Shown here piece after piece: positions 22,814 to 58,639 of a DNA stretch of 64,000 nucleotides. The DNA is from Prorocentrum cordatum (Eukaryota). The notes beneath the pieces were generated by a model. It searched no databases. It had not been told where the DNA came from and saw only the letters and a program-made list of their open reading frames with translations. Where the stretch lies: the NCBI GenBank assembly GCA_963575745.1, contig CAUYUJ010000083.1, positions 1-64,000 on the forward strand, written 5' to 3'. Positions within the stretch are counted from its first letter, which is position 1; every line of letters starts with the position of its first letter. A program made the translations under genes and the position numbers.

Positions 22814-22913
22814 NNNNNNNNNNNNNNNNNNNNNNNNNNNNNNNNNNNNNNNNNNNNNNNNNNNNNNNNNNNNNNNNNNNNNNNNNNNNNNNNNNNNNNN
22901 NNNNNNNNNNNNN
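22814..22913. other. Assembly gap (100 N)
   Basis: Run of N. It hides the 5' end of the YR element. Confidence 1.
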
Positions 22914-39000: not shown

Positions 39001-41790
39001 CGCCGCTTGGGCAGAAGACGAACGCCGGGTCTGACAGGCCAGCTACCGCCCCCGTTTGCCCGATATGCTGTGCCATTCTGTTCCCCCAGGGGCCTTGGCA
39101 AACTCTTCGGGCCAACCAGACCGGACCCTTCGGACAGCAGCCAATTGATATGACCCAGGGACCTCTCCGCAGTCTTCGGACGAGCACCTGGGGGGCCCAG
39201 GAGATTCGGACAAGTCTTCCCCATTCCTTGCCCTGTCCCGTTCTGTTCGCCCGAAGGCCTCCACAGACCCTCTGGGCGAACAGAATGGGACATGACGAAC
39301 AAACTCTCCCGTTGGCGGTGGTGCGACTGGATCGCACCATCAAGGCGTGCCCGGAGGTGATGGCCGACCCAACAGCGGTTTCTCTAAAGATTTTACAGAA
39401 TTTCAAATTTAATTGAAGCTCTTTTGGGCCCTCTCCCTGTAGATCCTTGCGAGCCTCCCCGGCGCTTTCGGTGGCTTTCCCCGATGGCCTCCCGAGCCCT
39501 TCCCTGGGCGTTCCTGAGACGCCTCAGATTGGCTTCGACTTCGACGCACATCCCTGAGAGACTTCGAAACTGCCCTCAATAGGAGGGGGGTGAACGAGCA
39601 GTGCGCTGGGCCAAGCTGCTGGAGCGCTGCAAGAGCTCGGACACGAAGTCGCGGTCTCGCTGCCGCCGCCCGAGCCGCCGCCGTGTTTGTAGATTTTCGG
39701 TGCAATCTGCGCCGTTCCTCCGAGAACCATTCCAGAAAGATGTCGTGGACGGAGTCCACGTGTCAGCCCTAGTCTCTATTACATTGCAGGGCCCAGTGCA
39801 TACCAGAAGGGCGCAGGCTCCATTAACTCATAATCGCCCCGGGCTGGCCCCGGGCCGCCCCGGGAGGCCCCAAGACACGCCAAGGGGGCCCCAAGAGGCC
39901 CCCAAGACGGCCCCGGAGGGCCCCGGCACGCCCAGCGAGGGGCCCAAGACGCTCGAGATTGGCCCAAGGCCTCCAAGACGCCCCAAGAGGCCTCCCAAGA
40001 GGCGTCCCAAGAGGGCCCCGAGCGGCAGAAACCGTCGATTTCCATTGTGTTTTTCGATGGTTTCGGCCTCCTCGCCTTTTCGGCTTCCCGACGCTCCAAG
40101 ACGGCCCAAGACGTCCCCCAGACCGCTCCAAGACGGCCGAAGAGGACCCCAAGAGAGCCCCAAAACGGGCCAAGAGGGCCCCAAGACGGCCCCAAGACGG
40201 CCCAGGACGGCCCCAGGACGGCCCAGGAGGCGCCCAAGACGGCCCAAGAGGCACCCAATACGGCCCCAGGAGCGGCTCAAGACGGCCCAACAGAGCCCTA
40301 GAGGCGCCGAAGCCGGCCTCAGACGGTCCCAAGACGGCCCAAGAGGCACCCAAGACGGCCCAAGAGGGCTCCAGAGCCCCCCAGGAGACCCAAAAGAAGC
40401 CCCTCGAAAGGGCCCCCACGAGGCCCGAAGTGGCTTCAGAAATGCCTCAAGGAAGGCCCCAAGACGGGCCAAGACGGACCCAGCACAACCCAAGGCGCGC
40501 TGCGACGGCTCAAGACGGCTCCAAGACAGCCCCAAGAGGGTGCCAACACGGCCCCTGCTGGGCCCAGGACGGCCCAAGGAGGCGCACAGGAGGGGCCCAA
40601 GACGATTCCAAGGCGGCCCCCTCACGGTCCCAGACGGCTCCAAGACAGCCCCACGAGGACCTCGATGGGCCCAGGACGGCCTACGGACGCGCCCATGAGG
40701 GGCCCACTACGAACCAAGACGGCCCCATCACGGCAAACGGCGCCCTCAAGACGGGCATGGACGGCTCCAAGACGGCCCTTTGAGGGAGCCAACGCGGCCC
40801 CACACCCTTCGGGCGCACACTTGGGGGGGCTGGGAGCTTGCGACAAGTCTCCCACATTCATCGTCCTGCCCCATTCTGTTCGCCTGGAGGCCTCCTCCAA
40901 CCCTGTGGGCGAACAAGAGGAAACCCAGCGGGCCGCCAACCCTGGGGCCCGTGGGCCCCGCGCCGCTTGGGCAGAAGACGAACGCCGGGTCTGACAGGCC
41001 AGCTACCGCCCCCCTTTGCCCGATATGCTGTGCCATTCTGTTCCCCCAGGGGCCTTGGCAAACTCTTCGGGCCAAGCAGACCGGACCCCTGGGACAGCAG
41101 CCAATTGATATGACCCTGGGACCTCTCCGCATTCTTCGGACGAGCACCTGGGGGGCCCAGGAGATTCGGACAAGTCTTCCCCATTCCTTGCCCTGTCCCG
41201 TTCTGTTCGCCCGAAGGCCTCCACAGACCCTCTGGGCGAACAGAATGGACATGGCGAACAAACCCTCCCGTTGGCGGTGATGCGACTGGAACGCACCATC
41301 AAGGCGCGCCCGGAGGTGATGGCCTACCCAACAGCGGTTTCTCTAGATTCTGTAGGCTTTCGCCACACCGCCGACCCCTTGTTTTTTTTTGGAGGCAATC
41401 TTGGACGTCTTGGGGGCGTCATGGCCCGACTTTATCCCCCGCATTCCTATCGTCGTCGTCTTTGCTCCTCCTCCCAGTAGTCGGCCCATCCCGCCACCGT
41501 GCCTGAGTTGTGGTTCAGAGGCCTCTCAGATATTCGCTGGGATCTCGTGAGAAGCCTCTCGGGGGCCTGCTGGAGGCAGTTTCGAGGCACCTGGGGAGCT
41601 GTTTTGGGGCTTCTTGTAGCCTTTTTTGGGCCTCTTGGGGGCCTCCTGGGGCCTCATGGGGGTCTCTTGGGGCCTCCTGGGGGCCTTTTGGGGCGGAAAG
41701 CTGTTTTTTTCGCTTCGTGGTCTCCCTCTTGGGCCCCTCTTGGGCTGGCCTTGGGGCTCTCTTGGGGCCTTCTTGGGCTGTCTTGAGGCT
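36060..41790. repeat. CCCAAGA(C/G)GG ~11-bp satellite with embedded interspersed units X (39410-39795; partial 37336-37480) and Y (38810-39385, 40770-41345); inverted orientation 41510-41790
   Basis: Motif periodicity, and near-identical blocks shared with 58640-62805. Confidence 0.9.
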
Positions 41791-41978
41791 CGCGAAGCCG
41801 CTGACGTGCGCGGCGTGCAAAGGCGCGTTCTCGGACACGAAACATTTGAAGCAGAAACAAGTGGAACATCATCGAGCGGCGAAAGGAGCTAAAGTGGTGT
41901 ACAGAAGCTGCGAGGAACTCGGGTTCACAGCGCGCAGTTGCCAGGCTTATCAGTGCAGCGGCGCGTGCAAGAGAGGAC
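41789..41978 (+). pseudogene. Cys-rich zinc-finger-like ORF, 5' half, interrupted by the Copia element (3' half 58320-58402)
   Basis: Removing the element and one TSD restores ...YQCSGACKRG|LPKSAFPDPHNLPRDAKKGTLKCKTCK*. Confidence 0.65.
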
Positions 41979-42263
41979 ACTTTAAACGGAGAAGGTTAAA
42001 GGCGAGGTATAAATCGAGCATGTACCGCTGCCGTGCCTGGCTCAAGCCGGGCCCGGCCAAATATATGACTGTGCCTCACCGAGGCGCACGACTGGTATCT
42101 GAGATCGGAAAATACCTTTTCCATTGAAGATGCCCCTTCTATCCTTTACTCCAGATCCCATGCTTCGTCTCGCTCTCTTGCTCATGCGATATGAGCCAAA
42201 GCCTGGGATATGGCAACGCTTGAAGCGTAACACATACCTAAGCTTACCAGCATGTTTTCGACT
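41979..42263 (+). repeat. 5' LTR (285 bp)
   Basis: Matches 58030-58314 except for 2 substitutions. Confidence 0.97.
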
Positions 42264-44106
42264 TGGTAGCGGAGCTGGCTACACTCTCGTGTGGCTGGCT
42301 CTCGCTCTGATTCCTGTAATCCACGGCACAACTTGGTGGACTACTACTACGGTGGAATACCATGTTGCGCCGGCTCTGCGAGGAGCGGAGCCAGTCCGCG
42401 ATCGAGCTAGCGGGGCAACCCGCGAACTCGAGACGCTCTCTCCTACTTCACTGCGCTACTTCACTCTCGACTTCCACCAGATGCCAATCGGCAACTCGAT
42501 CGAGAACGTGGTCACCCTGCGGGGCTACCCGCAGCGGGGCCACCTGCATCCCGTGCCAGTCAGGCGCCTCACGGCTACTACGCCAGAGCCTGACAAACCA
42601 CAGCCTAAACCAATCACCGAAGCCGAAATGCACATGCACTGGATTAAGATAACTATCTTCGGCATTCTGTGGGTAATAATGGGATGTGCTGTGGGATACA
42701 TGCGGCAGGGGATGGACGACACGCGTACTACCGGCCCTTCGTGGGACCCTGCCGGTACTACGCCTTTTCGCGAATACGTTCGCGAAGTACATGCATGGAT
42801 AAACGTAACGAGCGGCAATATGACGCCACCTCAACAAGCTGCAGCACTACAACGAGGCCTTCAAGGTCTTGCTCGTCGTATCGCCATGCAGGTCCCCTCC
42901 CAGATCATCAATTATGGTGTAACTGTCAATGGACAGCCAACGGATGCAGTTACTTATATACTGTACCTATTGAGCACCAAATTTGAAAATCTGGAAGATG
43001 AGCGCCAGCTCAACTCTGGCACTGCCCTTATCGACTTTCGCGTCGAAAGGGGCGAGCGAATCGACTCAGTGTTAGCTCGATTCGAGATGGCCCGTGACGA
43101 GGCTAACTCTGTTGGCTTTGTCATCCCCAACTTTCAGATCCTAACGCTGATCCTTTTCAGAGCGTTAGGCGTTGGCGCGTCACGAGCCCAACACCTGCTG
43201 GAGCCCTTTAATCATCAGATGCCCAGAACACAAGCAGACTATGACAGGCTGCTGACCAGGATGAGGAACTACGGACATGTTGCCGAGCGCTCTCCTGGCA
43301 ACATTGCGGGTATCTTCACAGGGCACCACTCACATGCAGGTGTCTACGCCACGACTGCGGGGTCACCCGCTGGTCCTGGCGAGCCAAGTCCCTGGGCTGA
43401 CCCAGCCGATATGCCCAACGAGGCCACTGCCTTCTTAGGGCAGACCGGCCAGGCATCGGCAGAGGCAGCTGAGGCGAACGCCTGGTCGAACTACTCGCCA
43501 GGCGCCGCCTACACTGCAAGCCCGCCCTCGGGCACAACCCTCTGGGGCCAAGCGGAGTCATCCGCTCAAGGGTCTCAGCCACCCTCACCGTTTGAATCTG
43601 GCACTGACACAGATACCTCATCTGACGATGAGCACAATGGCATAGTCTCTGCTGGTAATGACTATCCAGCGGATGACACTCACCTTTCTGAACAACAAAG
43701 AGCGGAAGCCGCTTTTATGGCTTATCGCAAATCAAAACGCCGTTGGAGGCGCTTTATGAAGAAACCAGTCAGAAAAGTGAGACGTGCAGTACGCCGACAT
43801 TTCAAACGATATGGAAAGGGTCGTGGCAAAGGGGGTCGCAGACGCCGTATGCATGGTAGGGGTATTACTGCTTTCCTCACGTCCTTAACTGATATAGTTT
43901 TTGAAGAAGTTCTTATCGGAGGCAAAGGTCGGGGTCACAGGCGGACCTCTGGTAAGGGAAAAGGGCGGAGGGGCAACCCTAGGGGCGCTTCTGGCAATAC
44001 TATGAAGTGTCATACATGCGGTAGCACAGAGCATTTGCGCGATCAATGCCCGAAATGGGAAAGGAAAGGGATCCGTACATTTGGCTCAGAACTCTTTTAT
44101 GGATGA
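42130..44106 (+). CDS. gag: Gag (hydrophobic N-terminal segments, capsid-like core, CCHC knuckle)
   Basis: PSWDP..F..Y..W core, basic GKG tracts and CHTCGSTEHLRDQC. Continues into the next frame via a +1 indel near 44053. True start uncertain. Confidence 0.85.
   Translation: MPLLSFTPDPMLRLALLLMRYEPKPGIWQRLKRNTYLSLPACFRLGSGAGYTLVWLALALIPVIHGTTWWTTTTVEYHVAPALRGAEPVRDRASGATRELETLSPTSLRYFTLDFHQMPIGNSIENVVTLRGYPQRGHLHPVPVRRLTATTPEPDKPQPKPITEAEMHMHWIKITIFGILWVIMGCAVGYMRQGMDDTRTTGPSWDPAGTTPFREYVREVHAWINVTSGNMTPPQQAAALQRGLQGLARRIAMQVPSQIINYGVTVNGQPTDAVTYILYLLSTKFENLEDERQLNSGTALIDFRVERGERIDSVLARFEMARDEANSVGFVIPNFQILTLILFRALGVGASRAQHLLEPFNHQMPRTQADYDRLLTRMRNYGHVAERSPGNIAGIFTGHHSHAGVYATTAGSPAGPGEPSPWADPADMPNEATAFLGQTGQASAEAAEANAWSNYSPGAAYTASPPSGTTLWGQAESSAQGSQPPSPFESGTDTDTSSDDEHNGIVSAGNDYPADDTHLSEQQRAEAAFMAYRKSKRRWRRFMKKPVRKVRRAVRRHFKRYGKGRGKGGRRRRMHGRGITAFLTSLTDIVFEEVLIGGKGRGHRRTSGKGKGRRGNPRGASGNTMKCHTCGSTEHLRDQCPKWERKGIRTFGSELFYG
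42264..42278 (+). promoter_or_regulatory. Primer-binding site TGGTAGCGGAGCTGG, initiator tRNA-Met type
   Basis: Directly abuts the 5' LTR. TGGTAGC is complementary to the ...GCUACCA 3' end typical of eukaryotic tRNA-iMet. Confidence 0.8.
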
Positions 44107-47086
44107 CATAGACTACATTGACTACGAGTTTTACGTCAATCCAGAAGCGGCTCCCGCCGCGGGCTCCTCCACGTATTACGTGATGGCCCGCTACGCTGAA
44201 GTGACCGTAGCCCTGGAAGACTACGCGGTGACCCTCTTCGACGAGTTCCACGGCTGGGACGAAGTCGACGAGGTCGCGTTCAATGCCTGGTTCGGTCTTC
44301 CAGCGGGGCCACCCGCCGACGACGAGATCTCCGATGCTGAGACCGTCCCGGCGACCGAGGAAGAGCTCGCCGCCGCGCTGGCACCGCAGGTGATTGGCAT
44401 GCCGTTGCTGCCAGATCTTCCGCGAGCTGGCTCGGAAGCGGGAGACGCTGATGACGAAATGCGGGGCCATCCCGCGTATTCTGACTCCGAAGAGGCCGAA
44501 GAGGACTATAAGGACATGCTCCAAGAGCAGGTCGCAGAAGCAATCCGGCTCCTGAGTGCGCCAGCACATCAGCAGATAACCATGAACGACCTGCTGTCGC
44601 GCCCAGGGGCCGCAAGGCTGCGTCCATACCTGGATTCGGACATGTCGGCACCTCAGATGCTGACAGCACTCCAGGCTCTAGCGGGGTCACCCGCCGAAGA
44701 GACGCCAGCCGCAGCAGCGGGGCCACCCGCTTGGTCTATGGATGTATTCATGCAGGGCTGCGACCAGATGGACCTCAACGACCTCGCGATGGAGCAGCTC
44801 AACGACATCGGGTACTTCCGAAGCCCGTATCAGCACGTATTCATGGTCCAGGACAGCTCAGAAGACTCGGAGGACATGCGCCATGCCAAGAGGGACAGAC
44901 GACCATCGCCTCCCCGAGACCCAGAGCATGACGATCAAAGGCCCATGGGACGTGGCAGTGCGTCAGCGGGGCCAGCCCGCAGAAGGAGCCGTTCAGCTCC
45001 ACGACGCCCTACACATGATGCATCGGGCTACCCGTACAGTACGGAGCACTCCGTAGGTGTATCCGCTCAGTACGTGCCGGAGTGGTACATCAATTGGTAC
45101 CCCGGCTACTCGATGGACGTGATCCGCCACTGGTATTCTAAGGAGTACTGCACCAAAAGGGACGAATCTGGCATGATAATACGTACCAAGGGTGGCAAGA
45201 CTAAAACGCCAGAGGCTTGGGACAAAAGGGCTAAGAAACAGGAGATAATCAACGATCGCAAGACATACAGGAAACAAGTATGTCAATGCGAGCCCTTCAA
45301 AGGTCACATGCGCAGCTGTCCAATGGACCGCCCCCCCAGGAGTCCTCATCACGGTGAGACCCCGTGGAATTGGTCTCATGGAGATGACGCTGGCAACGTC
45401 CATGATCCTAATAAGGAGGTCCCTGGAGGAGGAAAGCGCATCACTGAAGCCGATCGCGTCCCTATGACCGAGGAGGTTGCCAACACTGTCAGGGAAAATT
45501 GGGTACAGCTTCCCAATGACCATCGCCTCAAGGAATGGAACCGCCGATTCCATAAAGAGGCGGGGTCACCCGCAGAATCCAGCAAAGAGGCGGGGTCACC
45601 CGCAGAATCCAGCAAAGAAGCGGGGTCACCCGCAGACGCGGCGCCAGCCGCTGGGTCCGCGGACGAAGATTGGACAGCTGTTGCATCTGCTGCCGGATCC
45701 GCCGCCGGCACTGACCAAACCGAACTGAATGAAGAATGGGCGGCGGAAGACGGCTCAGAGAATCCATTCCCTGATGGGTGCGCCTGCTGGTACTACAGCT
45801 CCTCGGCGCAGAAGTGGTTTTGCACAAGGGTCATTCACCGCCACGAAAATGGCAAGTACAAGCTGGCCATAAAAGGCACTGCCGACATCGACCATATGAG
45901 GCAGATCATCCATGATCATGGCCAGCCAGAAGGCCCTCCTAAGGACCCTCCTGGTCCACAACCAGGTAAGGGCAGCAGACCACCTCCAAGACCTGAAGCC
46001 GACTACTCTTCTTCACCGACTCCTGCGAAGAGACACCCGTCCAAGAGCCCCGAAGACACACAGGGGCGTGCGAAGGCCAGAGGGATCGCCAAGAAGGGCA
46101 ACCCTGAGCAGGGAGAGCCTACCGGCCCGTCCGTGACGGAGAGGAGGAAGGCTTTTGCTGGACCATCGACCCCGATGCCACCGGCTGCCCAAGGCGATGT
46201 CAAGGGCGAAGTTCGCAATCAGCCTAAGGCAGCCTTCCGAGGTGACTGGACTCCAACTCTGCATCAGCCGCGCCTTGCACCACGACCAGGTTCGGCACGG
46301 ATGAAAGCACAGCCGAAGCCCGAAGCTGGGATGAGGTCGGTGCGGGCAGAAGCAGCCGCCAAAGCTAAGGAGGACAAGGGCTCTGCGGGGCCACCCGCTA
46401 AAGCGGCGCCAGCTGCAGCAGCGGGGACACCCGCAGAAAGCACTCTTTCAAGAGAAGAACGCTTCAGAGCCCTCAAAGAATTTGGCGACCGACAGAAACT
46501 AGCCGACGATGCAGTGGCTGACCAAGGTCACCCGCACCCTGGCGCGGAGTCATCCGCTGGAGCTGCCTCGTCAGCCGCAGGTTCTGCAGGGCCACCCGTT
46601 AAAGCGCCGCCAGCTGCATTAGCGGGGCCACCCGCGCGCTGGCAGCCAGTGATGTCTGTTCTTAGGAACATCCCTCTGGGAGCCATTGAATATTGGCAAG
46701 GCATTGAAGGCAAAGGCCCGAAGCGCACCATAAACCCACGAGTCACTCGAGACGATACAGATCGATACGAGGTCATTAATTGCCCTGATCGTCGTAACTT
46801 CGAGTGCCGCAACGACTGGGAACGTGAACAACAAGCCGTGGGAAATATGTTGCGAGACAGGCCGCCATTGCGCGTCGCGCAGCACAGGGCAGAGCTCATG
46901 AAGGTCATGGAGAGGTTCGGCATGGATCCGACTCTGCCGCGCGATGGGCAAATGACCAAGGTGTCAATATGGTTCTCTACAGCCCTACGCCATAGTCCGT
47001 ATTGGAAGGATGGATTCAGCCGACACTTCGAAATATTAGCACTTTCGATCCATACGATGGCTGGGTTGTTGTTGACGATTTGCTGA
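44081..47086 (+). CDS. Polyprotein part 2: low-complexity linker, Tudor/SH3-like domain (45767-45907), N-terminus of the Tpt1/KptA domain
   Basis: 1001-aa open frame with FPDG..WYYSSSAQKW..RV...ENGKYKL and SIWFSTALRH. Confidence 0.75.
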   Translation: MAQNSFMDDIDYIDYEFYVNPEAAPAAGSSTYYVMARYAEVTVALEDYAVTLFDEFHGWDEVDEVAFNAWFGLPAGPPADDEISDAETVPATEEELAAALAPQVIGMPLLPDLPRAGSEAGDADDEMRGHPAYSDSEEAEEDYKDMLQEQVAEAIRLLSAPAHQQITMNDLLSRPGAARLRPYLDSDMSAPQMLTALQALAGSPAEETPAAAAGPPAWSMDVFMQGCDQMDLNDLAMEQLNDIGYFRSPYQHVFMVQDSSEDSEDMRHAKRDRRPSPPRDPEHDDQRPMGRGSASAGPARRRSRSAPRRPTHDASGYPYSTEHSVGVSAQYVPEWYINWYPGYSMDVIRHWYSKEYCTKRDESGMIIRTKGGKTKTPEAWDKRAKKQEIINDRKTYRKQVCQCEPFKGHMRSCPMDRPPRSPHHGETPWNWSHGDDAGNVHDPNKEVPGGGKRITEADRVPMTEEVANTVRENWVQLPNDHRLKEWNRRFHKEAGSPAESSKEAGSPAESSKEAGSPADAAPAAGSADEDWTAVASAAGSAAGTDQTELNEEWAAEDGSENPFPDGCACWYYSSSAQKWFCTRVIHRHENGKYKLAIKGTADIDHMRQIIHDHGQPEGPPKDPPGPQPGKGSRPPPRPEADYSSSPTPAKRHPSKSPEDTQGRAKARGIAKKGNPEQGEPTGPSVTERRKAFAGPSTPMPPAAQGDVKGEVRNQPKAAFRGDWTPTLHQPRLAPRPGSARMKAQPKPEAGMRSVRAEAAAKAKEDKGSAGPPAKAAPAAAAGTPAESTLSREERFRALKEFGDRQKLADDAVADQGHPHPGAESSAGAASSAAGSAGPPVKAPPAALAGPPARWQPVMSVLRNIPLGAIEYWQGIEGKGPKRTINPRVTRDDTDRYEVINCPDRRNFECRNDWEREQQAVGNMLRDRPPLRVAQHRAELMKVMERFGMDPTLPRDGQMTKVSIWFSTALRHSPYWKDGFSRHFEILALSIHTMAGLLLTIC

Positions 47087-50000
47087 CAAACTGGACTGAA
47101 AATGATCAGTGGAAAGGCTATCGTGAAATGCACGAGGTGCTGATCAAGGGCAGGCCCCACACGTCATACGTGTATTGGGTGCTGCTAAACTGCTGTGAGA
47201 TGATTGACCATCACGGCATGCAGAAGGGCAGGCTCCAGATGAAGTGCGTTGATGACAGCATGCTGCTGCCTCCCAGGTTTCGACCAACGGCACGCAGGCC
47301 ACAGTACTTCATCAGAGCCACGAACGGCCACAGCAGTCCAGGCATCCACTGTCCCGAGTCGCTTTATAAGCCGATCACAACATGGATGAAAGAACCAGAC
47401 GACCCAGTATATTTCATCCACGGGACACAGTGGGAGTATGTCAAGGACATCCTTGCTAATGGCCTTTCATGCCTCGCACAGGACAACCCTAAAAGGAAGG
47501 GGGGGCGCCAATTTGTACACGGCTGCCCCTACCTCCCGGGCGACCCGAGGATTCAATCGGGCATCCGTCCTGACTCGGAGGTGCTCATATTCTGCAGCAT
47601 CAACAAGATGCTGTCCAGTGGCTTCTCCCTATGGAGGTCAGCAAATGACATCGTCATGACACGGGGCCACGACGGCCGTATACCGCCCGATCATATCCTC
47701 CAGATTGTGAGCATTGCGAAATATCGGGTCGGTGAAGCCTGGAGCAATCCGCTGGCGTATGACAAATCGCGGAGGCGGGGCCAACCCGCAGACAGGATTC
47801 GCACCGATGACTACCTGCCACTTAAACTATGTGACAAAACTCTGGGTGTAATGGAAGATCACGCCATGTACCTAAAGGGATGGTCTAAGACGGACGGTCG
47901 CCCATTCAACTTGATCATGACCGAGCAAGATGTTGCTCCACGACCGTACGACACACAGACGGTCCTCATGATAAATGCCCAGGAAGACGAGGTCATGCCT
48001 GAAGCGGGGCCACCCGCAGGTGCGGGGACACCCGCGGTAGACACCTCGGACGGTTCATGGCAACAAGTGGTCACACCAGTAGCAACGGTAGCATCTCCTT
48101 GGAGGCCGGATCAGCAGGCATGGGTCCAGGCCCTCAACAGCTACTTGACACCAGCCGACGTTTCTGGACTGACCGATCAGCTATATCGTGCTGACCCGTG
48201 GGCAGTGCATACAGGTATCCAAGACGCACAGCAGAGGAACCTGCGCACTCCTGCGGGGCCACCAGGCGTCCTAGGACCACAGCCACAACGCCCTCCGCAG
48301 CAGACGGGAGGTGCGAGGTTTGTCCCTATGGGCGGCTCAGATGGTGGCTCGCCGTTTCGGACTCCGCCGTCTGAAACGAGCGAGAACAGCTTGTGGCAAA
48401 GACTCCAGGCGATTCGCGGGAATCCGGCACTCGCAGCAGCACTCCAAGCAACCACTCCCTTTGGCACTCCGAGGGGTAGTGAAGGAGGAGTGGCTGCGGG
48501 GTCACCCGCCGAGCGAACGCCTGCGGAGCCACCCGCTCAAGCGGGGCCACCCGCTGACGGACAGCAAGGTTCAGACTACGAACGTCGGGCAGCCAACTTA
48601 AGAGCACAGGCTACTTTTCTGCAGCAACAAGCTGATAGAGTGCCCAGCCTGTTGCGGAACCGCAACATAGATGTTACGAATCATGGCGACTTTCGGCCTC
48701 TCTGGAGCTGGACTTCTGAAGATGCTCCAAATGCTGATCCCACGAATCCATATCGACAGGTGTTTATTCCAGGAATAGCATCACACCCGATATATGGATG
48801 GGACAATCACGGTCCAGCAGAGGCACAGGCCATGGACGCGCCGATGTACCCGGAGTACTACGCGCAGATGAATAACACTCCTATGATTGCGGGGCCACCT
48901 GCGAACGAATACACTCGGAATCTAGCCAATGAGATGTTTCGTTTGCAGTTTACACGAGCGGTCGATGCGCAGTCTATGCCGCACTACGCCTACATGCCCA
49001 CGCCGACGGACCCCGAGACCGTAGTTCAGCCAGCTGGTCTCGCGGTGCCAGCCGCTATGGGCAACGTGCCAGACTACATCCGCGACGTGCACAACACGCA
49101 GCAAGCGATACTGGCATCCAGGCAGCAGGCTCGGGACAACACCAGGCTGCGCCAACGACGCGCGATCCAGAGAAGGATTGAGCGTGAGACCCAAGCGGGG
49201 GCACCCGCAGAAGCGGGGCCACCCGCTGAACGGCCAGACAGACGGCCGCCACCGACGCCATATCGGGAGGGCGAAACCACTTTCGAGCGCCAAGCTCGGA
49301 CTCGCCCTGACGTGCCTGCTCCAGTCATTTCAGACTACAACTTCACACAGTGTCCAATCTGCATGGACAACTACGAGATGGGCACTACAGTGTGGAGACT
49401 GGCGTGTGGGCACTTCTTTCACGATATATGCTGGGATCGTGTTGCACAGCAGCACGTCCGCAATCAGCGGCCAGGTGCGCCGAATGAGGCCCCCTGCGCT
49501 GTATGTCGTGGGCCGGGCATAGTTATAGCGCACTTCCCGTGTGCTGGACAGCGCGACGCTGAATCAGAACAAGCGCGCCAGCAGGAAAGGTACGTGGCAG
49601 ATGCCCGGGAAATGCGTCGGCTACGTGAAGCAGTGGAGGCACTGGAGGCTCGAGCCGCACAATCGGCGGAGCCATCCGCACGTGCCCCAGCTGCACAGGC
49701 ATGCCCCTGGCCAGCGCCAGAGCAAGGCATTCAGATGCCAATCCTGCCTACGCTTCGAGCGCAGGAGCCCCCAGCTGCGGGGCCACCCGCTGAAGCGGCT
49801 CCCGCCGCACAAGCGGGGCCACCCGCAAATGGACCTCCAAATCCAGGTTTCCTGAGGGCAATGGAGGCCAACATCAGGCGGAGTGGCAGGAGCGGAGGCG
49901 GGACTCGAAGGCCAACTGGATCAACCAGGACCTCGCGAGTGGCAAGCCCGGTCAGCGCCAGGAGCCGGGCAAGCGCTGAGAGCGCAGAGGCAGCCCAGTT

Positions 50001-51312
50001 CCATACTACATTCATGATCGATACAGAGGGGCTGACCTACGCACGTGACGACACGGACACGCTGCCACCAGGAGGTGAATGGATGTCTACGCTATCTGCG
50101 AATTATTGGGTCCTTGAGCAGGAACCAATTACCGTGGAGGAGCGCCGCCAGTATGAGCAGATGTGGTGCACCGAGCTGACCATGAGTCAATGGGTTCTTG
50201 AACAGCGCCTGTTGAAGGGTACACTCGGATCGCAAATCACGTACCACACCAATGACCATGGGACAATCGCTCTGGCAGCGCGCAATGGGACATTCTTTCC
50301 CGACGAAGATGGTATGCCCTGCACCTCGTTCATGCTAGACATTGGTTCCAATGTGAACATCATTGGATCCAATACGGCGCGAACCTTCCAGGAGATTATG
50401 GCCAGGTGCAATTACCGACCTGCCATATGCACCCTGAGCAAGACCCTCTACATCAATGGTGTTGGTGAGGGCGCTGCGATATGTCGGAAGATGGGCAACT
50501 TCAAGATCGGGGTACAATATGCCAATGAGGCGAGCCCCCGTATTGAGGAGTATGCCTCCAACATTGCAGAAGGCTCGGGTGCTAATCTCCCGGCCATCTG
50601 GGGCCTAGGAGCCATGGAAGCACGTGATACGATCATCGTGCTGAAGCCAGGCTACCAGAAGGTTATCTTCCCCAGCGGTGACTACACCCTGAAGCTGGGA
50701 AGAGGCGCCAAGGTCCTGAAGGCGAAGAAAACTCCCTCGGGACATCTCGCGATTCCCTGCGGTTTGTATGACGGGGCTAAAAGCCAGACGGTCACGAACA
50801 CCTTCACAATCCGCAGTAGTCGAGATGGCTATACCGAGACGGAGAACGAAGAGGACCCCGTCAGTGCGGGGACACCCGCCGAAGCAACAGCGGGGCCACC
50901 CGCGACGGGACAGTCCACGACCGTCACGACCGATACGTACATTGTCGAGCCGTACATCGACAAGCAGCTCCTGGAAGACACGACCCGTTTGATCGTGGAC
51001 AGGACGCTGAACAGCTGGTGGGAGGGCCAACAGTGTCCCGAAGGGACCTGGCCACATATGAAGGATGCTCTGAAGTCTAAGATATTCTGGGCAGTCCAGG
51101 AGGCGGTGAATAAATGGACACCTGAGGACCAAGCGGGGCCACCCGCGTCACCGCCACCACCACCAAGCTACACGGGCGGAGGTTCGTCGGACTCTGCGGG
51201 GCCAACCCGCGTGGAGATCGCGAGCGTAGCCACACCAGCGACTCCTGCGGAGCCATCCGCTAACAGCATGCCTCCGAGTCAGACGGCAACGTGGTCACAC
51301 GACCGCCGCTGA
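47002..51312 (+). CDS. Polyprotein part 3: Tpt1/KptA-like 2'-phosphotransferase, RING-H2 finger, aspartic protease
   Basis: DGWV, KGRL, IRATNGHS, HGT, GLS, SGIR and SANDIVMT. CPIC..CGHFFHDIC..CAVC (49351-49506). MLDIGS..AIWGL (50330-50610). Confidence 0.85.
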   Translation: MEGWIQPTLRNISTFDPYDGWVVVDDLLTNWTENDQWKGYREMHEVLIKGRPHTSYVYWVLLNCCEMIDHHGMQKGRLQMKCVDDSMLLPPRFRPTARRPQYFIRATNGHSSPGIHCPESLYKPITTWMKEPDDPVYFIHGTQWEYVKDILANGLSCLAQDNPKRKGGRQFVHGCPYLPGDPRIQSGIRPDSEVLIFCSINKMLSSGFSLWRSANDIVMTRGHDGRIPPDHILQIVSIAKYRVGEAWSNPLAYDKSRRRGQPADRIRTDDYLPLKLCDKTLGVMEDHAMYLKGWSKTDGRPFNLIMTEQDVAPRPYDTQTVLMINAQEDEVMPEAGPPAGAGTPAVDTSDGSWQQVVTPVATVASPWRPDQQAWVQALNSYLTPADVSGLTDQLYRADPWAVHTGIQDAQQRNLRTPAGPPGVLGPQPQRPPQQTGGARFVPMGGSDGGSPFRTPPSETSENSLWQRLQAIRGNPALAAALQATTPFGTPRGSEGGVAAGSPAERTPAEPPAQAGPPADGQQGSDYERRAANLRAQATFLQQQADRVPSLLRNRNIDVTNHGDFRPLWSWTSEDAPNADPTNPYRQVFIPGIASHPIYGWDNHGPAEAQAMDAPMYPEYYAQMNNTPMIAGPPANEYTRNLANEMFRLQFTRAVDAQSMPHYAYMPTPTDPETVVQPAGLAVPAAMGNVPDYIRDVHNTQQAILASRQQARDNTRLRQRRAIQRRIERETQAGAPAEAGPPAERPDRRPPPTPYREGETTFERQARTRPDVPAPVISDYNFTQCPICMDNYEMGTTVWRLACGHFFHDICWDRVAQQHVRNQRPGAPNEAPCAVCRGPGIVIAHFPCAGQRDAESEQARQQERYVADAREMRRLREAVEALEARAAQSAEPSARAPAAQACPWPAPEQGIQMPILPTLRAQEPPAAGPPAEAAPAAQAGPPANGPPNPGFLRAMEANIRRSGRSGGGTRRPTGSTRTSRVASPVSARSRASAESAEAAQFHTTFMIDTEGLTYARDDTDTLPPGGEWMSTLSANYWVLEQEPITVEERRQYEQMWCTELTMSQWVLEQRLLKGTLGSQITYHTNDHGTIALAARNGTFFPDEDGMPCTSFMLDIGSNVNIIGSNTARTFQEIMARCNYRPAICTLSKTLYINGVGEGAAICRKMGNFKIGVQYANEASPRIEEYASNIAEGSGANLPAIWGLGAMEARDTIIVLKPGYQKVIFPSGDYTLKLGRGAKVLKAKKTPSGHLAIPCGLYDGAKSQTVTNTFTIRSSRDGYTETENEEDPVSAGTPAEATAGPPATGQSTTVTTDTYIVEPYIDKQLLEDTTRLIVDRTLNSWWEGQQCPEGTWPHMKDALKSKIFWAVQEAVNKWTPEDQAGPPASPPPPPSYTGGGSSDSAGPTRVEIASVATPATPAEPSANSMPPSQTATWSHDRR

Positions 51313-52293
51313 CGGGGGCAGGCGGGCGCGCCGGCGGCGCTCGCTTGCGAAGAGAAGCCGAATGCCGGCCTCCTCGCTACATACGTTGGCCGCGCTGAGG
51401 CCCGAGAGGAAAAATATCATTCAAAATGTCTTGTCATCGAAGATATTCGCACAGCTTGCGCTGAACTCCGAATCCGTGGATATATATGCGACCGGATTAC
51501 CCATAATGAGGTAATGACTTCAACTGGAACACAGTATTTGGGAAATTTGTTGGCAGGAGACTACAATATGTTGTGGGTGGCCACACCCTCTGATTGGTAC
51601 GTTCGTACTCCAGGAAAGAGGGCGGGACCACACTATCAACGTATACAAAATCTCCTGATCAAAGCGCGTGCTCTGAGAATGCAGATTGTTATCCTGGGGC
51701 CACCCGGGTATTTCTGGAAACAGGGTCCGATCAAAGATGTTATCGAAGATTTGAAGCTAAGCATTATACGAATGAGACTCTGTCATTTCGGTATCAAGTT
51801 TGACCGCTCCAGTAAATATCCCAGTGGTTCTTATATACAAGTTGCTACATCTTGTCCTCATATACCGATAAACTTATGGAGATGTACTTGTGGCTCACAC
51901 AAAGAGCATGATTTGGATTGGTATGGCCAAGATCAGCAACGTGCCGAGTTCCGGCATAAAACCTTGGCTATCATCACAGCACGCTTCCTTGATCAACTCA
52001 ATAAAGCCAACGTGATTAGGAATGAGCGGAGTGCGGTGCACCTCAGTGTGTGTACGCGCGTTGACAAAAAGGAAAGACACTACGTTCAATGTCCACAAAA
52101 GGGCCCTCAATGGGACCATGTTGTTCGTAGAGTCACGACCGACCTGGACACGTATAAGATCGTTCAAGATATCAAAATCCAGGATCAGCCGACTGGGTAC
52201 AACTATGTAGCTCCATTACCTGATGGGGTTACAAACATCAGTACTCGGTTTATACTGGGAGCCTCCGGCTCCAGTTCTTCACGGCGATGGTGA
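51313..52293 (+). CDS. In-frame continuation after a single TGA: degenerate methyltransferase-like domain
   Basis: Same frame as 47002-51312 with no further stop. LWVATP / VILGPPGYFW / RLCHFGI / RCTC..H parallel the motifs of the domain at 52769. Confidence 0.6.
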   Translation, partial: RGQAGAPAALACEEKPNAGLLATYVGRAEAREEKYHSKCLVIEDIRTACAELRIRGYICDRITHNEVMTSTGTQYLGNLLAGDYNMLWVATPSDWYVRTPGKRAGPHYQRIQNLLIKARALRMQIVILGPPGYFWKQGPIKDVIEDLKLSIIRMRLCHFGIKFDRSSKYPSGSYIQVATSCPHIPINLWRCTCGSHKEHDLDWYGQDQQRAEFRHKTLAIITARFLDQLNKANVIRNERSAVHLSVCTRVDKKERHYVQCPQKGPQWDHVVRRVTTDLDTYKIVQDIKIQDQPTGYNYVAPLPDGVTNISTRFILGASGSSSSRRW

Positions 52294-55200
52294 GTCGCGA
52301 AGGCCACGCCCAAAGCGTGTGACGATCGTCGACGACGATCGGTCTCCTCCCCCTTCGATTGAGCGCTGCCAAACGCGACCCACCAACTTTCCTGAAATTC
52401 CGCCATTTCCTGACTTAACAGCGGACCCTTCCGCAGCGGATCCCTCCGCAGCGGATCTCTCCGCGGAAACTGCGCTGCCCACTGATGCCAGGATAAAACA
52501 GAAAGAAAAGCAGAAAGCTGACAAAGAAGCCGGCATCAAACCGAAGAAAATCCCGAAGAAAGTGGAAGACGGTAACGACGACTGTGGAGAGGACCTCAAA
52601 GGGCTTGACTGCTCCACATATTTCAACGACGTTCCTCTTGACGACTCGGACTCGGACAGCGAATCAGAGGACATCTTCATGATGTTACCGGCGGGGCAAC
52701 CCGCTGACTCACATGTTGATGTCTTCTCGATGGTCCAGTCACTATGCTACGGCAGAAACAATCAAGTGGACATGCTTGAATTATGTGGGGGCAAGGGTGG
52801 TATATCCATATTAGCCTTCAAGAGAGGACTCTCGTCGGGCGGGAACCTTGATAAGATATCAATGGTTGACCTTGGAAACGCAGAAGTACAAAGGGCGGTC
52901 CTTCACTACCTCAAGACTTGCTTTGTCAAGATCACGATTCTGCAGCCAAGCTGCAGAACTACTGGACTTCCTTCATACTTCAATGCGCAGGTCAATCATG
53001 ACACGTGGCTTAAACACCACAAGGAGGACCTGCCCCATATCACGTTCTGTGGAACAGTCGCTCTATTGCAAGACGACCTAAGACGTTTCTTTCTCAGGGA
53101 ACAACCAATGGGCACGTGGGTGGATGAGATCCAGCCATGGAAGGAACTGGCACGACGCAAGGTCACTTGCCAAACGATTATTGATCAGTGCACGACTGGT
53201 CTCAAAGATTCGTTTGGACAATACATCCGCAAGCCAACACAGATGATGGCAAACAAAGAAGAGTTGTTGGCACCCTTCAGAGGCAAGCGTTGTCCAGGTA
53301 ATCATGTGCACGCCAATGCTTGCAACAAAGAACTAGCAAGGGCGGCACAGTATACCTACAGAATGCAGTCATTGATCGTCGATGCGGTGCAAACCGCCAA
53401 AGATCTGTTTGCTTACGGTCGCGATCCATTCGCGAATCGCGAACGCAGTTATGCGTTCGTAACAAACAGTGCTGGCTACGACTTGGACGACCCAACAATC
53501 CGGAGACACCCAAACGGAGAAATCTGGCGACCACCACCTGGCGGTCTTGGGTGCCCTGGCTGTGTGGACAACAACTACAAGCAATCACCAAAGCACAGCA
53601 GGGATCCGAAGATGTGTCGGTGGTATGATGTTGAACCATACTACTGGGACTGTCCAAGCTGTAAGAAGGAATATCAGAAGAGTAATCCTCACCACACCAA
53701 GATATCTGGCCAATGCAGATTCGCCGAAAAATGGAAGCTGCCAGATAACTTTGGGCAGCCGCGCCCGGCGGGGCAAGCCGCTCCTGCGGCGCCAGCCGCG
53801 GAAGCGGCTCCAGCCGCAGAAGCGGCGCCAGCCGCAAAAGCGGCGCCGGCCGCGAGAGCGCGCATACGCGCGCCTAGGCCGCCACGGCCCGGTGAGGGCG
53901 ATCCAACCGCAGGCGCCAGCAGCCATGACATCACCAGAGCCGAAGGGGCTAATAGTAGCAACACTGGCGCTGGCAGCTCTGACGATCACCGTAGACTGCC
54001 GCAAGTGGCAGCAAGGCGCGGACGCATGGAAGGAGGTGATCCTCCACCGCCGCCGCAGCCTCCTGTAGAGCCGAGGCCAAGGCCAAGGCTTCCTGATTGG
54101 ACTCGTTTCGATGTTCAGCTCAGCCTTCAAAACCTGCGCAGCTTTGACCCAGCTGTAGTGCAGCGAGAACTCCGCAAGCTTCACTTGAGATGGTTTCATG
54201 CCAAGGAACCAAAGATGCGGATGATTCTAGCTAAGGTCGGTTTGGGCGAAACCCGTTTGAGTCTGATTAAGGGCATTTGCGACTCGTGTAGAGAATGTCG
54301 CGCCTGGGACAAACCAGGCAACACGGTGATGCCATCTGTGTCACTGCCAGGACATTTCAACGAGGAAGTCGAATGTGATCTTTTCTTTTACAAACAGGAA
54401 CATATTGTTTTTCACATCATCGACCGTTGTATTCGTTGGGCAGCTGGTACAGAGATCCCCGATAAGACTATGCACACTGTTCTTGATGCCTATCACACAA
54501 CTTGGATGCAGCATGGCCCTGCCAAAGTCTTATACTCCGACGGGGAAGGAGCACTGAATAACGATACAGCAAAGGCCATCCTTAAATCCAAGGGAACGGA
54601 GCTTCGTATCCGAGCGCGTGGCCAACACGCCACGACTATCGAAGCTAGGAACGGCATCCTGCGACACCTCATACACGTGATGGGAGAAGAATTGAATAGA
54701 TTGAATATTCCTCTGAATTTCACTCGTCTTTTACATGAAGCCATGTTTGCCAGCAATGCATTTACCTTCTACAACGGAGCTTCTCCGTATAATGCGTTAT
54801 ATGGCAGACCACCAGCTATGCTTCCCGATTTCCTTGTCTTGGATCATGATCAATCCGCTGAATCATCAGATCACTCAAGGGAGGAGACAATCAGGAGGGT
54901 TAGTCTGGAGGCAATCACGCAGGCCACTGCGGTTGCCAAGACAAACAGGGCTCTTCGTACGAAGACCGCTGCTACGGGTGAATTTCACTACAGAGAGGGA
55001 GATCTCGTGGACTATCATCGCCCGACCACCACGAAAGATGACTGGGGTGGATGGAGTGGTCCATACCCGGTCATCCGCAATGAACCTGACCGAAGCCAGG
55101 TTATCGTGAAGGTCGGTAGTCGCGAAGTGCGAGTACAATATCCTGACACAAGACACACGCTGTACATCGAAGCACTTATGGTCCGCGAGATAGGATCGGA

Positions 55201-57925: not shown

Positions 57926-58029
57926 CGAGGCTACTCGCGCGCCCTTGCCTTGTAGGCGGCCGCTGCTGCTTAGCACTGTTTTTCCGCGTAATGTAGAAGT
58001 GCGGTGCCTGCTCGTCTCCTCCCCCTCCG

Positions 58030-58314
58030 ACTTTAAACGGAGAAGGTTAAAGGCGAGGTATAAATCGAGCATGTACCGCTGCCGTGCCTGGCTCAAGCCG
58101 GGCCCGGCCAAATATATGACTGTGCCTCACCGAGGCGCACGACTGGTATTTGAGATCGGAAAATACCTTTTCCATTGAAGATGCCCCTTCTATCCTTTAC
58201 TCCAGATCCCATGCTTCGTCTCGCTCTCTTGCTCATGCGATATGAGCCAAAGCCTGGGATATGGCAACGCTTGAAGCGTAACACATACCTAAGCTTACCA
58301 GCGTGTTTTCGACT
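58030..58314 (+). repeat. 3' LTR (285 bp)
   Basis: Matches the 5' LTR and is followed by TSD AGGAC. Confidence 0.97.
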
Positions 58315-58639
58315 AGGACTACCAAAGTCGGCGTTCCCCGACCCGCACAATCTCCCGCGCGACGCAAAGAAGGGCACCCTAAAGTGCAAGACGTGCAAAT
58401 GATGCCCAATCGGTTGCGCGTACTAGGCAGAAAAGGGAGGACGGGAAGAGGAGGATGGGGGGTGAGGCGGAAAATGGGGGGGAGAAGCATCGGTGAGGAT
58501 GAGCTGAAGCGGGGCAGGAAGAGGAGGAGGGGAACGAGGAGGAAGTGTAGGAGGAGGAGGAGGAGGAAGAGGAGGAGGAGGGGGACACTGAGATGAGGCT
58601 CCGGGTTATGGGGTTGGGCGCGACTCGAAAGACCGGTGT

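Follow-up and report, generated by a model that had tools for sequence, protein, structure and literature searches.

A Tpt1/KptA RNA 2'-phosphotransferase domain in the polyprotein of a 16.3-kb Copia-type retrotransposon from the dinoflagellate Prorocentrum cordatum

Architecture of the element

Positions 41979-58314 of the window, the 64,000-nucleotide stretch of DNA analysed here, are a young 16.3-kb LTR retrotransposon of the Ty1/Copia type from Prorocentrum cordatum. The nearest named proteins are those of this dinoflagellate, and all stranded features given below lie on the plus strand. Two direct LTRs of 285 bp (5' LTR, 41979-42263; 3' LTR, 58030-58314), delimited by blastn self-comparison and MAFFT, agree at 283 of 285 bases, with mismatches at 42099 and 42252, and are flanked by a 5-bp TSD, AGGAC, read directly at 41974-41978 and again at 58315-58319. 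The LTR termini are ACT...ACT rather than TG...CA. Immediately 3' of the 5' LTR stands a PBS-like 17-mer, TGGTAGCGGAGCTGGCT (42264-42280), putatively assigned to the 3' terminus of initiator tRNA-Met; no tRNA gene was found within the 64-kb window. An identical 17-mer occupies the equivalent place (nt 1014) in L001, a metagenome contig that carries a relative of the element.

From 5' to 3' the element encodes a Gag zinc knuckle, then Tpt1, RING and a protease-like region; beyond a TGA stop come a candidate integrase, RT and RNase H. The Gag part of ORF1 (42103-44055, frame 1) is 65.5% identical to L001 in its core and carries a CX2CX4HX4C zinc knuckle at 44008-44049, which scores slightly below the cut-off of the zf-CCHC profile (E 0.0014; 19.1 bits against 20.8). 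It is followed in frame 2 by a long, weakly conserved middle region (44054-46951; 23.7% identity to L001), for which a Pfam search returned no known family. Downstream of Tpt1, a RING finger at 49351-49506 matches PF13923 (E 1.6e-07), PF13639 (E 3.7e-07) and PF17123 (E 7.1e-07), and is also found in the relative P0002. The protease-like region (50329-50823; FMLDIGSNVNIIG ... LPAIWGLGAM ... TPSGHLAI) was delimited by motifs that are conserved in seven sequences, DIGS and LPAI.G among them. It is 31% identical to L001, has no Pfam match and drew only unnamed clusters in an Atlas search, and its AlphaFold model (pLDDT 33.8) is unusable for a fold call. Its putative identity as an aspartic protease is based on the conserved DIGS and LPAI.G motifs.

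A TGA at 51310-51312, with CGG after it, closes the Gag-Tpt1-RING-protease-like ORF, beyond which this frame remains open until 52293; P0002 likewise terminates about 370 residues past its DIGS motif. We infer read-through of this TGA into Pol, which spans 51313-57925. Pol contains integrase HHCC (HLRWFH...CDSCRECR) and D,D,E motifs, read directly from the translation at 54182-54655, an RVT_2 reverse transcriptase at 56237-57016 (PF07727, E 1.5e-10, 41.5 bits against a cut-off of 31.6) and an RNase H-like end near 57710. The rve profile of Pfam did not match this candidate integrase even at E<=5. By eye, the C-terminal 230 residues of Pol are highly similar to nt 2-694 of L001. The RVT_2 match and the position of the integrase motifs upstream of RT support placing the element in Copia.

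The element also contains 27 copies of GCGGGGNNACCCGC, predicted to fold as hairpins with a 5-bp stem and a GNNA tetraloop. A motif count placed all of them on the plus strand and within the element (42410-57886), against 0.02 expected and none elsewhere in the 64 kb. In 23 of the 27 the motif sits in codon phase 0 and reads A-G-x-P-A, and the version in L001, GC[G/A]GGGCAACCTGC, preserves the hairpin pairing.

The Tpt1 domain and its catalytic residues

The Tpt1/KptA RNA 2'-phosphotransferase domain occupies 46952-47710, as delimited by Pfam, phmmer against the PDB and alignment. The frame from 46996 matches PF01885 (PTS_2-RNA) with an E-value of 2.6e-15 and 57.4 bits against a cut-off of 26; the match covers residues 65-224 (nt 47188-47667) and profile positions 67-177 of 177. 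When the window domain was compared with the PDB by phmmer, TRPT1 chains 7yw3 (E 2e-13) and 7yw2 (E 3.2e-12) were retrieved. With RVT_2 present in the same LTR-bounded element, these matches confirm the claim of an earlier note, made from the letters alone, that a Tpt1 domain is embedded in a Copia polyprotein. That note had also placed the domain between Gag and protease, which holds for the Gag-side ORF, whereas the protease has neither a profile nor a fold match. The N-terminal half of the window's domain found no Pfam match on its own. In L001 and in a second metagenome contig, L002, both intact, Pfam recognises this half only within the whole domain, which covers profile positions 5-177 (E 6e-19 and 8e-18; 69.1 and 65.5 bits, respectively).

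The fold was checked on the domain of L001, which is 49% identical to the window's piece. Its AlphaFold model (pLDDT 86.8, pTM 0.81) has the two-lobe fold of a winged-helix RNA lobe and an ADP-ribosyltransferase-type NAD lobe, and all 20 Foldseek matches in the PDB at E<=0.001 are Tpt1/KptA structures, led by mouse TRPT1 (7yw2, E 1e-12, TM 0.81). In alignment A3, which comprises 35 rows including the window, the N-lobe is longer than that of canonical Tpt1 by an insert of some 35 residues. Given this diverged N-lobe, substrate choice may differ from that of known Tpt1 enzymes.

Catalytic residues were mapped from alignment A3 and from the residues reported for CthTpt1, whose tetrad is given as R18/H19/R68/R121, with K66 (PMC6333775). 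The corresponding window codons are R at 46988-46990, H at 46991-46993, R at 47230-47232 and R at 47506-47508, so that the four residues the earlier note thought to be there are indeed present, and its motifs LRH, KGRL, IRATNGHS, HGT, RQFVH, SGIR, SANDIVMT and GRIPP all lie where it had put them. Further conserved codons are K (47224-47226), R (47314-47316), H (47419-47421) and N (47644-47646); of these, the Arg of IRA at 47314 is near-invariant and lies outside the tetrad. K-x-R does not vary across A3, and conservation is at least 90% for each of R(IRA), HGT, R-x-x-x-H, SGxR and N. As judged from its sequence, the window encodes a true PF01885-family Tpt1/KptA domain with the Arg-His-Arg-Arg tetrad and the NAD-lobe motifs.

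In the window copy the Arg-His of LRH is in frame 2 and the other two tetrad arginines are in frame 1, with a one-base deletion between them. The frameshift noted earlier near 47005 is real; comparison with other copies places it instead at 47031-47034, in a Lys codon between SRHFE and ISTFDP. Frame 2 runs ...LRHSPYWKDGFSRHFE up to 47032, and frame 1 picks up ISTFDPYDGW at 47035. In other copies this stretch is SRHFEK[I/V]STFDP, with an additional A and with G in place of T at 47034, so the Lys codon of the window copy is one base short. All seven P. cordatum protein models that span the break read E-K-[I/V], and the extra base is also present on contigs from four runs; the break is a private or minority variant. 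A look-up of sequencing runs for this stretch listed none of RNA. Two further breaks occur, one (+1) at 44053-44056 directly after DQCPK, where L001 is uninterrupted (CPKGDGKGR...), and one in Pol, where frame 1 ends at 52293 and frame 2 is used from 52211. Because of the base lost in Tpt1 and these two further breaks, the window copy cannot make the full protein.

Retention of the domain and its possible role

Relatives of the element keep the domain. In L001, Gag knuckle, Tpt1, RING and protease-like region are joined in one ORF of 2653 codons (nt 820-8778), with the Tpt1 domain at nt 4972-5742. Upstream of this ORF lie the 3' end of pol, a stretch resembling an LTR and the PBS shared with the window's element. 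Between the window and L001, Tpt1 is 47.4% identical and the linkers 24-32%. The earlier note had made its case depend on retention in other copies and on the absence of neutral decay. Retention was found in L001, L002, P0002 and 53 element-type proteins or fragments. Among these 53, tetrad Arg3 is kept in 21/22 and Arg4 in 36/39 of those covering the site; in a separate set of 15 sequences spanning LRH, its Arg-His is kept in every one. The His of HGT is replaced by Arg in 9 of 33 fragments and that of GHS in 6 of 29, changes that reflect either fragments from decayed copies or a sublineage with an altered NAD pocket. For the one metagenome contig pair compared, L001 and L002, dN is 0.106 and dS 0.920 over 241 codons of Tpt1 (bootstrap omega 0.117, 0.072-0.167), with 40/17/83 differences at the three codon positions. 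In the 215 codons just upstream omega is 0.67, although dS is oddly unequal between the two stretches (0.92 in Tpt1, 0.34 upstream). On this codon comparison the domain is under purifying selection (omega ~0.12) rather than in neutral decay. A quick tree of 30 rows unites the seven element-type rows (SH-aLRT 100) and gives them a long stem branch, of 2.28 substitutions per site.

Since a 47%-identical relative shares the layout in one ORF and selection is purifying, we regard Tpt1 as integral to the element family, and it is almost certainly a real and selected domain of the element. That this copy merely captured a fragment of a host Tpt1, or disrupted a host gene on insertion, with no role in the element, is extremely improbable. 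The frame-shifted state of the window's domain could be read in that way, as could the P. cordatum gene models that join Tpt1 pieces to unrelated host exons. However, the domain lies inside an element bounded by LTRs and TSD, is joined to Gag and RING within a single ORF of L001, is carried by 53 divergent element-type proteins forming a single well-separated group on the tree, and has an omega of 0.12. The most plausible reading of these chimeric models is that unmasked copies of the element were annotated as genes, which explains the 'Tpt1-like' exon pieces scattered among P. cordatum gene models.

Tpt1 removes internal 2'-phosphates from RNA, and we know of no source of 2'-phosphorylated RNA in dinoflagellates. 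The position of the domain on the Gag side, upstream of the in-frame stop before integrase and RT, fits co-assembly with Gag. Translated on that side of the stop, Tpt1 would probably be made at Gag stoichiometry, co-assemble into the particle and be freed by the element's putative protease. In the particle it would most likely use NAD+ to strip a 2'-phosphate, or a terminal 2'/3'-phosphate, from RNA. It could act on the genomic RNA template or the tRNA primer once these have been damaged by cleavage and ligation, where such phosphates would otherwise block reverse transcription or priming. Tpt1 is probably catalytically active in intact copies, to judge from its conserved residues, and we tentatively suggest that its main role might be 2'-phosphate removal on the element's own RNA. 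Some Tpt1 enzymes are described as also removing terminal 2'/3'-phosphates (PMC6573784) and some as ADP-ribosylating 5'-phosphates (PMC6182162).

The latter reaction offers a less likely main job, namely one-step ADP-ribosylation of 5'-monophosphate ends on the element's RNA or linear cDNA. A 5'-phospho-ADP-ribose cap would guard against 5' exonucleases, dead-end circle ligation and end sensing, and would leave the 3'-OH ends used by integrase free. One active site is described as performing both reactions (PMC6182162, PMC12678800), and the closest solved relatives are mammalian TRPT1, PMC12678800 being an account that ties mammalian Tpt1 to 5'-end ADP-ribosylation. The conserved tetrad and NAD-lobe motifs would serve such capping, but the sequence does not separate it from 2'-phosphate removal, and Pfam found no ADP-ribose-removing (macro/NADAR) partner in the polyprotein.

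It is rather unlikely that the enzyme acts on host molecules instead of the element's nucleic acids, whether by undoing damage done to tRNAs by host ribonucleases and ligases, by consuming NAD+ or by ADP-ribosylating host nucleic acids. KptA is described in phage tRNA-repair systems and embedded in picorna-like virus and nidovirus polyproteins (PMC9503650), and an RNA 2'-phosphotransferase homolog in invertebrate nidoviruses (PMC11848433). The RING domain, a possible ubiquitin ligase, adjoins Tpt1 in the same ORF and would suit counter-defence, but Pfam found no RNA ligase or 2H phosphoesterase partner in the element. Moreover, we know of no such host defence in dinoflagellates, and the host presumably owns a Tpt1. 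A Tpt1 fold with dispensable catalysis, retained as an RNA-binding or NAD/ADP-ribose-sensing scaffold for assembly or RNA selection, is a still more doubtful reading. It would accommodate the strongly diverged N-lobe with its insertion and the His-to-Arg changes of HGT and GHS in part of the family, and the 27 dispersed hairpins could be ligands of some RNA-binding part of ORF1. However, at 47% identity it is precisely the tetrad, the Lys of K-x-R and the motifs of the NAD lobe that persist, a pattern that suits an enzyme better than a scaffold.

Returning to an enzyme that acts on the element's nucleic acids, we raise as a possibility, and a speculative one, that this giant dinoflagellate Copia lineage carries an NAD+-dependent nucleic-acid phosphate-modifying enzyme in its particle and that its retrotransposition depends on chemistry that no other retroelement is known to use. 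Either 2'-phosphate marks would be erased from the template or primer, or the 5' ends of RNA or cDNA would be capped with ADP-ribose. The RING domain and the 27 GNNA hairpins might also be components of that RNA-handling machinery.

Comparison with known systems

Tpt1 is present in all domains of life, and to our knowledge few of its natural substrates have been identified beyond tRNA splicing in fungi and plants. If the phosphate-modifying reading is true, Tpt1 gains a natural substrate outside tRNA splicing. The element, with its selected and catalytic-looking Tpt1, offers a compact natural system for the enzyme's role, with few candidate substrates: one genomic RNA, one primer and one cDNA. 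It also hints that dinoflagellate reverse transcription has to overcome some chemical obstacle, or some defence, of a kind unseen elsewhere. The wide presence of Tpt1 in bacteria has been called a long-standing conundrum (PMC6333775).

Our literature searches turned up no Tpt1 in retrotransposons. With the cellular enzymes Tpt1, TRPT1 and KptA (mouse 7yw2, human 7yw3, Clostridium thermocellum 6e3a) the element's domain shares profile, fold and tetrad, together with the K-x-R, HGT, R-x-x-x-H, SGxR and N motifs. In contrast to these free-standing proteins of about 180-250 residues, it is one domain of a polyprotein whose ORF exceeds 2,600 codons, is 25-30% identical to canonical members and has the motifs CPESLY and GCPYLPGD of its own. 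The KptA/Tpt1 of RNA viruses (Beihai picorna-like virus, Botrylloides leachii nidovirus) is, by published description, likewise embedded in the polyprotein of a selfish RNA-based replicon, and the authors discuss a role in RNA-end processing or repair (PMC9503650, PMC11848433). Those carriers are animal RNA viruses without a DNA stage, whereas ours is an LTR retrotransposon of a dinoflagellate.

Among dinoflagellate elements, the SmTCL1-4 elements of Symbiodinium microadriaticum are also Copia LTR elements, with integrase upstream of RT, an order that the motifs suggest for the present element too, and with RNase H, and are reported to be about 10 kb long and recently active (PMC5776459). As described there, they have RT, integrase, RNase H and LTRs only, and the word 'phosphotransferase' does not occur in that paper; the present element, compared with that description, is 16.3 kb long and adds Tpt1 and RING in ORF1. 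A parallel in kind is the capture of host domains such as DNMT, described in dinoflagellate and charophyte retrotransposons (PMC5890265), and MBD, in arthropod Copia (PMC6673714), where a host-derived accessory domain has likewise been fixed and selected. The Symbiodinium Copia elements treated in PMC5890265 are described as being without DNMT, and Tpt1, KptA and phosphotransferase are absent from its main text. With the Prorocentrum element, the few host domains known to have been taken up by LTR elements are joined by an enzyme of RNA-end processing or RNA repair. The cargo of the DNMT and MBD elements, as described, concerns DNA methylation, whereas that of the present element is a predicted NAD+-dependent RNA phosphotransferase.

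Identity and reading frame of the Tpt1 domain

The window carries a genuine Tpt1 domain, well outside what chance would give. The PTS_2-RNA family (PF01885, Tpt1/KptA) matched residues 65-224 of the forward-strand frame starting at 46996 with a Pfam E value of 2.6e-15 (57.4 bits, cut-off 26), which bears out the complete-looking domain that an earlier note had read by eye, and phmmer against PDB sequences returned tRNA 2'-phosphotransferases alone (7yw3, E 2e-13; 7yw2, 3.2e-12; 7yw4, 0.0034). The N-terminal half taken by itself (the protein models P0160 and P0010, and window positions 46952-47032) gave no PF01885 match in Pfam at E<=1. All of the Tpt1 motifs named in that note were found where it had placed them. 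The essential tetrad of CthTpt1 is Arg18, His19, Arg68 and Arg121, with Lys66 two residues ahead of Arg68 (PMC6333775, in extract). Mapped through this tetrad and alignment A3, which holds 35 rows of element-type and canonical Tpt1 proteins, the tetrad codons of the window are R at 46988-46990, H at 46991-46993, R at 47230-47232 and R at 47506-47508, all on the forward strand; by this mapping the arginine of KGRL (47230-47232) is a true tetrad member, and the arginine at 47314 is an extra conserved one beyond the tetrad. The K-x-R pair is invariant across the 35 rows, the R of IRA, the GH of GHS, HGT, R-x-x-x-H, S-G-x-R and N are each conserved in at least 90%, and the window carries every one of the motifs conserved in A3.

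Because the window copy is frame-broken, the fold was modelled on the intact domain of L001, a relative on a metagenome contig, and not on the whole window protein. The AlphaFold model of this domain, built on A3, had a mean pLDDT of 86.8 and a pTM of 0.81 and shows a Tpt1/KptA fold: all 20 Foldseek matches against the PDB at E<=0.001 were Tpt1/KptA structures, headed by mouse and human TRPT1 (E 1e-12 and 9.4e-12; TM 0.81 and 0.78 by target).

The break itself had been put near 47005; direct reading of the frames moves it to 47031-47034. Frame 2 runs on through LRHSPYWKDGFSRHFE to 47032 and frame 1 picks up with ISTFDPYDGW at 47035, and there are no stop codons across the domain in either frame besides the break. 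Seven P. cordatum protein models (P0003-P0007, P0010 and P0160), 83-99% identical to the window, read ...SRHFEK[I/V][S/R]TFDP...; since they have the lysine, the window misses one base of the Lys codon at 47031-47034. In Logan contigs from four sequencing runs aligned to 46500-51500, an extra A behind 47030 was present at a depth of 98.7 of 724.2 in X1, 835.7 of 1852.5 in X5, 15.5 of 15.5 in X10 and 42.7 of 42.7 in X3, and G replaced T at 47034 at depths of 215 of 269.8, 767 of 915, 15.5 of 15.5 and 42.7 of 42.7, respectively. Given that contigs of all four runs carry the extra A, the break is private to the window copy or a minority form, although it could instead be an assembly error.

Architecture of the element

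Standard-code reading of the window gives long forward-strand frames from 42103 to 57925. The LTRs are a 285-bp direct repeat detected by blastn of the window against itself (41979-42263 and 58030-58314, forward strand), the copies of which differ at two positions; AGGAC is present at both flanks of the element and TGGTAGCGGAGCTGGCT stands directly after the left repeat. The coding order, all on the forward strand, is a CCHC knuckle at the end of the first frame (44008-44049; zf-CCHC, Pfam E 0.0014, just under the cut-off), Tpt1 (46952-47710, by Pfam and PDB phmmer), RING (49351-49506, residues 785-838 of the frame starting at 46996; best E among Pfam RING families 1.6e-07), a protease-like region with conserved DIGS, LPAI.G and TPSGH motifs (50329-50823), a TGA stop with CGG next (51310-51312), after which the same frame stays open for 326 codons (51313-52293), integrase-type HHCC and D,D,E motifs (54182-54655), read by eye in a region with no Pfam match, RVT_2 in the last frame (56237-57016, Pfam E 1.5e-10) and, 3' of it, an RNase H-like end. 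Since the integrase-type motifs precede the RT and RVT_2 is matched, the element is Copia-type, as had been proposed. Two further frame breaks occur in the window copy, at about 44054 and at 52211-52293. A tRNA scan and an Rfam search over the element returned nothing, and no RNA runs are listed for 46700-48000.

A catalytic-looking Tpt1 shares its reading frame with Gag and lies ahead of the stop before Pol. The layout of TGA-CGG and an open frame into Pol resembles stop-codon read-through between Gag-side and Pol-side proteins, and if read-through takes place at 51310-51312, Gag levels would be expected for Tpt1, RING and the protease-like region alike. In contigs of other copies, the 36-44 nt just ahead of the stop are replaced (joints 51264/51272 to 51309). 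The protease-like region had nothing relevant in Pfam at E<=5, matched unnamed clusters alone in the Atlas and reached a pLDDT of 33.8, too low for use, in AlphaFold on a seven-row alignment; the protease of the earlier note is a putative one, named from its motifs. The RING at 49351-49506, for which three Pfam families were over the cut-off, has Tpt1 on one side and the protease-like region on the other and is kept in L001 and in the database protein P0002; an E3-ligase-type domain within a Copia ORF1 is itself unusual.

The motif GCGGGGNNACCCGC occurs at 27 sites against 0.02 expected, between 42410 and 57886 (for example, 48004-48017 and 45560-45573); all 27 are on the forward strand and within the element, with none in the rest of the 64 kb. 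It comprises a 5-bp stem and a GNNA tetraloop (GCCA 11, GTCA 7, GACA 3, GCAA 2, GAAA 2, GCTA 1, GGCA 1), and 23 of the 27 sites share one codon phase, encoding A-G-x-P-A in linker regions. The L001 counterpart is GC[G/A]GGGCAACCTGC, in which A-U or G.U takes the place of G-C as the third pair, so that hairpin pairing is kept; by alignment, 5 of the 22 window sites in the Gag-to-PR part coincide with an L001 site. The motif matched no Rfam family. The hairpins may serve in packaging of the RNA or in binding of a protein.

The N-terminal part of the Pol-side frame (52730-53710) has SAM methyltransferase-like motifs (LCGGKGG, QPSC, LREQPMG), and its nearest Atlas cluster is a DNA (cytosine-5-)-methyltransferase family protein (0.89, under the 0.9 level). 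Pfam returned nothing for this stretch, PDB phmmer gave chance-level matches alone (best E 0.44, a tie between replication factor A and MePCE methyltransferase) and BLASTP found no similarity to the DNA methylase of P0111, and we regard a methyltransferase-like domain here as a lead only. P0111 (ENA, 1513 aa) is an unrelated protein in which a canonical Tpt1 (E 1.5e-35) is fused to a C-5 cytosine DNA methylase (E 8.7e-31).

The insertion site is a repeated region (37337-41344 and 59500-62805). Left-hand stretches at 37774-38838, 38968-39774, 39524-40453 and 40450-41344 recur to the right of the element at 88-98% identity and are partly doubled on the left with a 1960-bp spacing; these stretches contain many periodic repeats of 21 nt, similar to CCCAAGA(C/G)GGCC. 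An assembly gap of 100 N (22814-22913) lies within a region of 71% G+C.

Relatives of the element and selection on Tpt1

When the Tpt1 part was compared with long proteins, P0002 (ENA, 1627 aa) showed 47% identity over 90% of the query and carried both PF01885 and RING families. A metagenome scan with the seven-row alignment A2 gave three loci. L001 (8780 bp) starts with a pol end that, by reading, closely resembles the RNase H end of the window, followed by an LTR-like stretch and a PBS 17-mer identical to that of the window; a single uninterrupted frame of 2653 codons then follows, open at its 3' end, and holds Gag with its knuckle, a long linker, Tpt1, RING and the DIGS region. L002 has an open frame over the entire Tpt1 domain, and L003 has decayed and contains frame breaks. 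A scan of viral_contigs found no relative.

An exhaustive representative search yielded 687 proteins at E<=0.001. In local alignments, 53 proteins, most of them short fragments, shared at least 43% identity with the window domain and 103 were canonical Tpt1 of lower identity. The count was made after removal of 14 ids: P0001; P0003-P0007, P0010 and P0160, which are P. cordatum models; and P0168-P0173, which are PR-region matches. Among the 53 element-type proteins, the third tetrad Arg is kept in 21/22, the fourth in 36/39, the R of IRA in 28/28 and N in 27/32; the His of HGT is kept in just 22/33 fragments, with Arg in 9/33. The His of GHS is likewise Arg in 6/29. If the codons match those of the window, both would be CAC-to-CGC changes; the cause may be decay of the copies or a sublineage whose NAD pocket has changed. 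A quick maximum-likelihood tree was built from 30 rows, five partial ones being left out. In it the seven element-type rows formed one group (SH-aLRT 100), whose stem measures 2.28 substitutions per site, and this is compatible with a single old capture. A cluster look-up of 10 relatives returned neither names nor taxa that would place the donor lineage of the domain.

A EukProt set that bears the label of a green alga, Pyramimonas sp., also contains both Tpt1-type and protease-like-type pieces of the family (P0159, P0161-P0165, P0171, P0173); the family may extend past dinoflagellates, or dinoflagellate sequence may be present in the set. Public P. cordatum models (P0003-P0007, P0160, P0169) join element pieces, namely the Tpt1 N-terminal half, often joined straight to the protease-like region, to unrelated host exons under names that include protein-tyrosine-phosphatase and 1,3-beta-glucan synthase, and are probably chimeras that annotation produced from unmasked copies of the element. 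We considered an internally deleted derivative joining the Tpt1 N-terminal half to the protease-like region (P0003, P0160); no such joint was among those listed for the four runs, and the joins in the gene models are therefore more likely predicted introns.

The Tpt1 domain is kept by selection. Between L001 and L002, its 241 codons gave a dN of 0.106 and a dS of 0.920, with a bootstrap omega of 0.117 (95% interval 0.072-0.167) and 40, 17 and 83 differences at the three codon positions; for the 215 codons immediately 5' of the domain, omega was 0.67. The window and L001 are 65.5% identical in the Gag core, 47.4% in Tpt1, 44.2% in RING, 30.9% in the DIGS region and 24-32% in the linkers. Among the 40 best-supported base differences in 46500-51500, behind which 353 others rank, none falls in 47035-47756 and 35 fall in 47757-51364, no more than a hint. 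Absence from family copies or neutral decay, which the earlier note had named as grounds for doubt, is at odds with a domain kept in L001, L002, P0002 and the 53 element-type proteins and with the low omega.

Possible function and comparison with known systems

Of the earlier interpretation, a real, integral and selected enzyme domain on the Gag side is supported, and the functions proposed for it are candidates. Tpt1 transfers the 2'-phosphate of an RNA to NAD+ and so removes it (PMC6333775), some Tpt1 enzymes remove terminal 2'/3'-phosphates (PMC6573784), and one-step ADP-ribosylation of 5'-phosphate ends is described (PMC6182162, PMC12678800), each as given in extracts of these papers. In known Tpt1 chemistry, 2'-phosphate removal and 5'-phosphate ADP-ribosylation share one active site. 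The Tpt1 of the element would probably be made in Gag amounts, enter the particle and be cut out by the putative protease of the element. Among its possible roles we rank first that it would strip phosphate marks off the template RNA or the primer, allowing the RT to copy or prime. Capping of 5' ends by the domain comes second in our ranking; a counter-defence directed at the host and a non-catalytic role are placed after capping.

Our full-text literature search found no report of Tpt1, KptA or PF01885 in a retrotransposon; most subscription journals and Repbase are outside its coverage, and absence from print is unproven. In the text of two papers on dinoflagellate retrotransposons, the domain has no occurrence (PMC5890265) and neither has the word 'phosphotransferase' (PMC5776459). 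PMC9503650 reports that eukaryotic viruses lack KptA or have it only rarely, and that a picorna-like virus and a nidovirus carry it within their polyproteins; for invertebrate nidoviruses, a homolog of RNA 2'-phosphotransferase is listed in PMC11848433. The element is akin to two known kinds of system, retrotransposons with a captured host domain and selfish replicons with a Tpt1 domain in their polyprotein.
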